Source of the DNA: a virus
Taxonomy: Duplodnaviria; Heunggongvirae; Uroviricota; Caudoviricetes
Reading direction: 5' to 3' (one strand)
Length of the DNA: 12,956 bases
Virus record (IMG/VR): IMGVR_UViG_2778261122_000005
Location: 1-12,956 of that record
Within the stretch, counting starts at the first letter, position 1, and each line of letters opens with the position of its first letter. A program made the position numbers and the translations under genes. A model generated the notes under the pieces. The model saw only the letters and a list, made by a program, of their open reading frames with translations. It ran no database searches and was not told the DNA's origin. Shown here piece after piece: positions 8,225 through 8,506 of this stretch.

Positions 8225-8506
8225 TCAATTATCCCTTTTTTTCGGGTAGTTCCTGAACATCTCACCGCCAGGTTTCTGTAAGCCCATCCCGGTATGTGTG
8301 CGGTTTATGGCCTCTTTCAGTATTCCGAAATTATCCGGTATGACTGGTTGGCGCGCTGCCTTACGGATACATTCCGCGCGACGCTTTGCCACCTGTTCGC
8401 GCTCCTTGTCAGTGCTCACCAGCCACATAACATCAGCCCAACGTGCCGCTGCTCTCCGGTACAGCCCTTTAGCCTCCAGTTCTTCCGCTTTGCTGTCTTT
8501 AATCAT
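8225..8506 (-). CDS. PerC-family transcriptional regulator-like protein
   Basis: Start chosen at ATG 8506 with a GAGGT Shine-Dalgarno. The N-terminus MIKDSKAEELEAKGLYRRAAARWADVM resembles the conserved PerC/Pch N-terminal region as I recall it. Small and basic. Family assignment is from memory, not a search. Confidence 0.5.
   Translation of the reverse strand: MIKDSKAEELEAKGLYRRAAARWADVMWLVSTDKEREQVAKRRAECIRKAARQPVIPDNFGILKEAINRTHTGMGLQKPGGEMFRNYPKKRDN

Follow-up and report, generated by a model that had tools for sequence, protein, structure and literature searches.

A PerC-family gene as optional cargo in an exchangeable slot behind ssb on a capsid-forming PICI

PerC of EPEC (BfpW, encoded on the EAF plasmid pMAR2) and PchA, PchB, and PchC of EHEC lambdoid prophages act as activators or anti-silencers of LEE1. 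What does a protein of the same Pfam family do when it is encoded on a phage satellite? The window analyzed here, i.e., the whole stretch of 12,956 nucleotides of the IMG/VR record IMGVR_UViG_2778261122_000005, carries such a gene (perC) at positions 8225..8506 on the minus strand. An earlier note on this DNA had considered two roles for it, a link between the island and virulence gene expression of the host and a function as the island's own late activator.

The coding sequence extends from an ATG at 8506 to a TGA stop codon at 8227-8225 in the list of open reading frames (ORFs) and specifies a protein of 93 aa (10.7 kDa; pI 10.0; 21 K/R versus 13 D/E residues). A Shine-Dalgarno sequence, GAGG (8513..8516, minus strand), was read from the sequence 6 nt before the ATG, and 15 nt separate the gene from the ssb stop codon (8522-8524). 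An in-frame GTG at 8518 was considered as an alternative start that would add four residues; it was rejected on the evidence of homologues, with position 1 of the Pfam model pairing with residue 1. The earlier note had recognized a PerC/Pch-like N terminus and proposed a profile search as a check. This search confirmed the assignment and widened it: the Pfam PerC model (PF06069) matched with an E value of 2.6e-35 (121 bits; cutoff, 22.6), and residues 1 to 89 aligned with model positions 1 to 89 of 90, so that the entire protein is PerC-like. The protein also matched phrog_994 in PHROGs (E value, 2.3e-42), and RefSeq genes 97 to 100% identical to it, including one that is 100% identical, are annotated as "PerC family transcriptional regulator."

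The similarity to EPEC PerC (pMAR2; 89 aa) is full-length and colinear (45% identity over 87 aa; E value, 8e-27). EPEC PerC used as a protein-search query returned only three close matches. The N-terminal motif D-x-KAE-x-LE-x-(K/R)GLYRRAA-x-RW and the conserved Cys are present in the window protein. Residues D4, E8, E11, G14, Y16, R17, R18, R22, W23, and C46 were invariant across 63 homologues, and a seven-sequence alignment gave D4, A7, L10, E11, K13, G14, R17, R18, A19, A20, R22, W23, R36, R43, C46, G75, and R85 as invariant positions. Among the perC alleles of the islands, the median dN/dS was 0.28 (229 pairs), with similar values for the N- and C-terminal halves, and perC is thus under purifying selection. 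The window perC is an intact PerC-family gene under selection.

The element that carries it is a capsid-forming PICI (cf-PICI). It combines a PICI-type replication module with genes for capsid, protease, portal, connectors, HNH, terS, and terL, and tail and lysis genes are absent. In ascending coordinates, which is the reverse of transcription, terL, terS, the HNH gene, two connector genes, and the portal, protease, and major capsid genes occupy positions 760-7127 of the minus strand. Beyond the capsid genes, the minus strand carries a DUF4222 gene, a DUF927 primase gene, an iteron origin, ssb, perC, and an 82-aa ORF (orf82). The primase, ssb, perC, and DUF4222 genes were named by Pfam. Capsid and packaging genes were named by their annotated counterparts in the related locus L001 (97 to 99% identical), and these names also lean on the ORFs of the window and on the gene order of Sakai Sp7. 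Genes for an integrase and AlpA-like HTH proteins lie outside the window, past its right end, and are present in near-identical E. coli islands in RefSeq. An Rfam scan of the window revealed no RNA families.

Positions 1-390 of the window represent the chromosomal flank on the thiM side, which matched 5,425 of 5,426 complete E. coli genomes; the attachment site, i.e., the island end, is thus placed between position ~390 and terL at 760. Unlike this island, near-identical cf-PICIs of E. coli KFu019 and APEC17 are inserted inside the terL gene of an HK97-like prophage, and the halves of the split terL pseudogene flank the island (L001, 4321-5064 and 20993-22021; L044, 1407-2150 and 17587-18615). 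Insertion inside a prophage gene was unexpected, because a preprint on cf-PICIs looked for elements at attachment sites that prophages never occupy (10.1101/2022.09.08.507074). In strain CEA106S, the flank and perC are 100% identical to those of the window, the primase is different, and the accessory gene orf157 (described below) is absent; these islands are mosaics.

The closest described counterpart of this layout is Sp7 of E. coli O157 Sakai, which corresponds to O-island 51/CP-933C of EDL933 and to the prototype cf-PICI EcCIEDL933. The gene order of Sp7 is ECs1581 (RgdR), primase, ECs1586, ssb, pchE (ECs_1588), ECs1589, and major head protein through terL. An RgdR-like DUF4222 gene, the primase, the iterons, ssb, perC or pchE, a small ORF, and the genes from capsid to terL are common to both islands, and the same iterons, TAACCCGCA, occupy the equivalent place in Sp7. 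ECs1586, which precedes ssb, was found only in Sakai, whereas orf157, which precedes the capsid operon, was found only in the window. The chromosomal sites also differ (thiM side for the window island and roxA/phoQ for Sp7). Judged from this gene order, the window perC is the positional orthologue of pchE. Its product is 59 to 60% identical to PchE (90 aa; 60% over 88 residues), and dS is ~1.2. A distinct allele class (MIKDSKAEE... versus MVHDRIAEE...) occupies this slot. The orf82 product is 40% identical to ECs1589, and the DUF4222 protein (11307-11621, minus strand) is 48% identical to RgdR. RgdR is a reported LEE regulator of OI-51, in which the RGD motif is reported to be important for activity and an R20C variant to be inactive (PMC3378721); the window protein has PGD in place of this motif.

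Other relatives lie in different surroundings. EPEC perC belongs to the perABC operon, beside the gene for the AraC-type PerA, whereas the window perC follows ssb on a satellite. In Sakai, pchA (L128, 33366-33680) is a moron beside the Rz/Rz1 lysis genes of a lambdoid prophage, and a PchA-type copy on an IncF plasmid (L127, 7001-7315) adjoins Rz1. A further PerC-family gene borne by a PICI is EcCIMP1_025 of the classical PICI EcCIMP1; its product is reported to be ~40% identical to the homologues of EcCIEDL933 and EcCICFT073, and it silences LEE1 in Citrobacter rodentium (PMC11773190). PerC variants on E. coli PICIs had already been recorded by Fillol-Salom in 2018 (PMC6092414).

The placement of perC suggests that it is expressed from the tail of the replication-module transcript. 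The gene directly upstream on the minus strand is ssb (8522..8947; Pfam SSB E value, 3.8e-16; TIGR00621), and 45 nt downstream of perC lies the small conserved orf82 (7931..8179, minus strand; phrog_1957 E value, 1.3e-35), with a ribosome-binding site, AGGAGG, before its ATG at 8179. In the terminator scan, a bidirectional hairpin resembling an intrinsic terminator at 7899..7924 (10-bp stem, six of the pairs being GC, and T runs on either strand) closed the minus-strand series ssb-perC-orf82 as well as the plus-strand orf157, and no earlier terminator was found after ssb. Upstream of ssb, in the interval from the end of the primase gene (9184) to the first codon of ssb (8947), an origin-like region at 9020..9160 contains at least six copies of the iteron, in both orientations, around an AT-rich core. 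We infer that ssb and perC are probably on one transcript, whose promoter likely lies in this iteron region, where a weak promoter-like match was found at 9097-9070. A promoter scan of the window found no convincing promoter, with three matches versus 2.8 expected, which is the chance level. For Sakai/O157, 5' RACE identified a polycistronic ECs1586-ssb-pchE RNA with its start site in the origin region (PMC7369912), and the window has the layout of this transcript minus ECs1586.

How constant is perC on such islands? Using the capsid protein, we collected 80 related cf-PICI loci from IMG/VR, and the interval from ssb to the capsid gene was complete in 63 of them. Although these loci are not independent events, they are clearly polymorphic. 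After ssb, perC was found in 38 of the 63 loci; a gene of the ProQ/FinO family (176 to 180 aa; PF04352, E value of about 1e-24) in 13; and in the remaining 12 the slot was empty and ssb led straight into orf82. Examples of ProQ/FinO-domain genes that replace perC are found at L056 (6945-7487), L003 (7462-7998), L017 (7535-8011), L033 (6520-7008), and L040 (6474-7004). These counts (25 of 63 loci without perC) exclude the possibility that the gene belongs to the core backbone of cf-PICIs; perC is ordinary optional cargo in an exchangeable slot. The accessory-region location given in the earlier note is thereby upheld, the gene being in a variable stretch of the satellite between the replication and capsid modules. 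Sister islands differ in what this slot contains, namely, perC, a ProQ/FinO-like gene, the two together, or no gene. In classical PICIs of Salmonella, EHEC, E. ruysiae, E. albertii, and Pantoea, the proQ-like gene is placed so that its stop codon touches or overlaps the beginning of perC, and proQ-perC is a recurrent two-gene unit beside replication genes. Decayed forms of perC were also encountered: one locus carries an in-frame ssb::perC deletion fusion (L096, about 6150-6335), and a truncated 54-aa "PchE," which retains only the ANR-like N-terminal domain described below, is common in EHEC-type PICIs (P0102; L040 to L042, 7001-7165).

A second hotspot lies between orf82 and the capsid gene. 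In the window it holds orf157 (7422..7895), an accessory gene on the plus strand, opposite to all its neighbors, that ends at the terminator at 7899-7924. Elsewhere it holds another ORF of 168 aa (L051, 7208-7714; L060, 4395-4901) or is empty. Searches of Pfam, NCBIfam, PHROGs, and PADLOC assigned orf157 to no family, and it was present in only two of the 80 IMG/VR loci (L073 and L076), as well as in L001 and a few further E. coli genomes. This slot looks like a cargo hotspot, possibly for defense genes; PADLOC defense families were not detected for perC, orf82, orf157, or the alternative 168-aa cargo.

Homologues of perC are widespread outside these islands. When a single genome of each species was scanned with a sequence pattern, 31 perC-homologue loci were recovered, from Escherichia, Atlantibacter, Enterobacter, Kluyvera, Shimwellia, Chimaeribacter, Klebsiella, Lonsdalea, Pantoea, Leclercia, Raoultella, Erwinia, Citrobacter, Buttiauxella, Rosenbergiella, and Rahnella. 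In 17 of the 31 loci, from ~12 genera, the homologue lies directly downstream of the DUF927 primase gene and/or ssb on the same strand. All 17 lack the capsid genes of this island and are thus taken to be classical PICIs. Gene tables of islands from Salmonella enterica, Erwinia amylovora, and EHEC-type strains gave the order AlpA, DUF4222, primase, (SSB), (ProQ), PerC, and a module of unknown function. The PerC domain was also found in 335 plasmid records, in temperate phages (SfII, SfIV, SfV, Stx2c, and YfdN type), and in some lytic Klebsiella phages. Because it is common on plasmids and phages, PerC is a general mobile-element regulator family. The plasmid copies were considered as possible occupants of an ssb-containing leading region, and this was not upheld in either example: on an IncK2/Z plasmid the gene lies near repA, convergent with a ProQ/FinO gene, and the IncF copy is the PchA-type moron next to Rz1, so that neither parallels the island layout.

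The fold of PerC bears on its possible mode of action. Residues 1 to 50 are TPR-like and related to the ANR (AraC negative regulator) family, and no DNA-binding fold was among the fold matches listed. ANR proteins (e.g., Aar of EAEC 042; NF033650) are, like PerC, small and all-helical (PMC4983702); compared with them, the window PerC has an extra conserved C-terminal part of ~40 residues. Of 63 PerC homologues, 62 matched the ANR model NF033650 in NCBIfam at E values of up to 1, the best being 5.6e-8. The alignment places residues 6 to 52 on the entire 54-position model, and the window protein itself scored 12.6 bits (E value, 0.094), below the curated cutoff of 32. A resemblance of EcCIMP1_025 to ANR was already remarked by its authors (PMC11773190). 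The PerC-ANR relation suggests a mechanism based on protein interaction for the PerC family. Aar directly binds the AraC-type regulator AggR and H-NS (PMC4983702, PMC5570504). The ten window ORFs scanned with Pfam included no AraC/XylS-family gene, and the annotations of near-identical and closely related islands list none. Pch lifts the silencing of LEE1 by H-NS/StpA/Hha, and its activation is wholly lost without that complex; Fukui et al. observed no coprecipitation of Pch and H-NS and favor an action of Pch at DNA or nucleoprotein (PMC4764244). Because of this coprecipitation result, even for Pch a mechanism that relies on protein-protein contacts alone cannot be taken as established.

Against this background, the roles raised in the earlier note can be weighed. 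As the island's own late activator, PerC from the early replication transcript would switch on the capsid/packaging promoter within 7128-7421. The gene does lie where the early operon ends, shortly before the capsid module, as an early-to-late activator might, and the AT-rich sequence upstream of the capsid gene (36 to 45% GC at 7200-7500) would suit an anti-silencer. However, the upstream region of the capsid operon (7128..7370, minus strand; weak -35/-10 match at 7304-7277) is conserved with or without perC: in the 25 of 63 related islands that lack perC, some of which encode a capsid protein 99 to 100% identical, these ~243 nt are still 94 to 95.5% identical (e.g., L046, L047, L049, and L056 to L061). 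An obligatory late activator is disfavored because perC-less islands keep this region; the comparison argues against perC as an obligatory island-encoded capsid activator, with the caveat that PerC could be supplied in trans from another locus of the same cell. Moreover, classical PICIs without capsid genes have perC in the same position, truncated and fused alleles exist, and no DNA-binding fold appears among the fold matches listed. We regard this role as very unlikely. The proposed link to LEE expression, in which the satellite PerC would activate the LEE1/ler promoter like EPEC PerC and PchA/B/C and tie type III secretion to the carriage or induction of the island, found no support either and appears slightly less probable still. 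The protein is a full-length homologue with every family-invariant residue, and some PICI PerC homologues activate LEE according to Fillol-Salom 2018 (PMC6092414). Yet the nearest characterized relative is PchE, of which the window gene is the positional orthologue. Pch proteins have been sorted into groups according to DNA similarity, size, and function, with PchE in group 3. Published papers, citing Iyoda 2004 and Porter 2005, report that ler/LEE expression requires only the Pch proteins of group 1 (PchA/B/C) and that PchD and PchE have little effect (PMC6265319, PMC7369912, PMC11773190). The PICI homologue EcCIMP1_025, as noted above, even silences LEE1.

The distribution of the gene also speaks against a LEE function. 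The window allele is carried by E. coli (EAEC) 042, porcine ETEC, and APEC strains, pathotypes that are not known to carry LEE; the island is known only from EPEC/EHEC, E. albertii, and C. rodentium. Homologues in syntenic positions were seen in Erwinia, Pantoea, Lonsdalea, Enterobacter, and Salmonella, and the conservation of one position across many genera without known LEE indicates that perC is not primarily a LEE regulator. After PchE (59% identity), the window protein is about equally distant from homologues of non-LEE PICIs (Salmonella, 49%; Erwinia, 48%) and from the LEE activators (PchA, 47%; EPEC PerC, 45%), so that sequence alone leaves LEE activity possible. LEE activation by the window allele is unlikely, and sequence-specific activation by PerC of the capsid operon or of LEE is most likely not its function.

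We tentatively favor, at somewhat less than an even chance, a reading in which PerC is a TPR/ANR-like adaptor that is produced from the ssb-perC-orf82 transcript and tunes nucleoid or regulatory complexes of the host as optional satellite cargo; our confidence in PerC-family membership and in orthology with pchE is far higher. The perC product is a small, basic, all-helical protein; a three-helix TPR-like unit homologous to the ANR domain (residues 1 to 50) precedes a fourth helix and a tail. It would be translated from the last part of the replication-module transcript, which would pass through ssb, perC, and orf82 to the terminator. PerC might then contact nucleoid-associated or regulatory complexes of the host, either of the H-NS/StpA/Hha type, on which Pch acts, or H-NS and AraC-type regulators, on which ANR proteins act. 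The result could be a shift in host expression, of the kind seen with PchE (curli down and flagella up), during residence or induction of the island. In cells that overexpress PchE, csgD and curli are repressed and flagella are enhanced (PMC6265319, PMC7369912); these phenotypes come mostly from plasmid overexpression (PMC7369912) and, because of the identity of only 60%, may not transfer to the window PerC. In O157, expression of pchE stays at a low, steady level as long as the element is resident and declines upon SOS induction (PMC7369912). This behavior fits a resident-state modulator of the host better than a function at the stage of induction, and it counts against another reading that we consider, on balance, unlikely. 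There, PerC, alone or with a ProQ/FinO-like partner, would act not on host physiology but on the establishment of the island or on its helper, by countering H-NS silencing of incoming island DNA or by modulating helper-phage expression. The wide occurrence of the PerC domain in mobile elements (plasmids and temperate and lytic phages), the recurrent translationally coupled proQ-perC pair beside replication genes, and the anti-silencer activity of Pch (PMC4764244) are in keeping with such a factor, but perC is dispensable in many islands.

Much of this is not new. The PerC family, its carriage by PICIs, this position on the cf-PICI of O157, and the resemblance to ANR are already in the literature or in routine annotation; PerC genes on PICIs appear in papers from 2012, 2018, and 2025. 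The discovery value is small, since pchE on such islands has been described and perC is annotated automatically. The useful output is negative, namely, comparative data against the late-activator idea and a LEE link made unlikely. The alternation of perC with ProQ/FinO-like genes, and their coupling, in one slot constitute a modest lead. On a broader reading, which we consider decidedly improbable, the ssb-proximal slot of enterobacterial PICIs would be a swap site for global regulators of satellites, and PerC and ProQ/FinO, often translationally coupled, would form a two-layer (transcriptional and posttranscriptional) cassette for host or helper reprogramming that is common to satellites and some plasmids. 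The other modest lead is the family-wide relation between PerC and ANR, with its TPR-like, non-DNA-binding fold, which bears on the mode of action of this regulator family.
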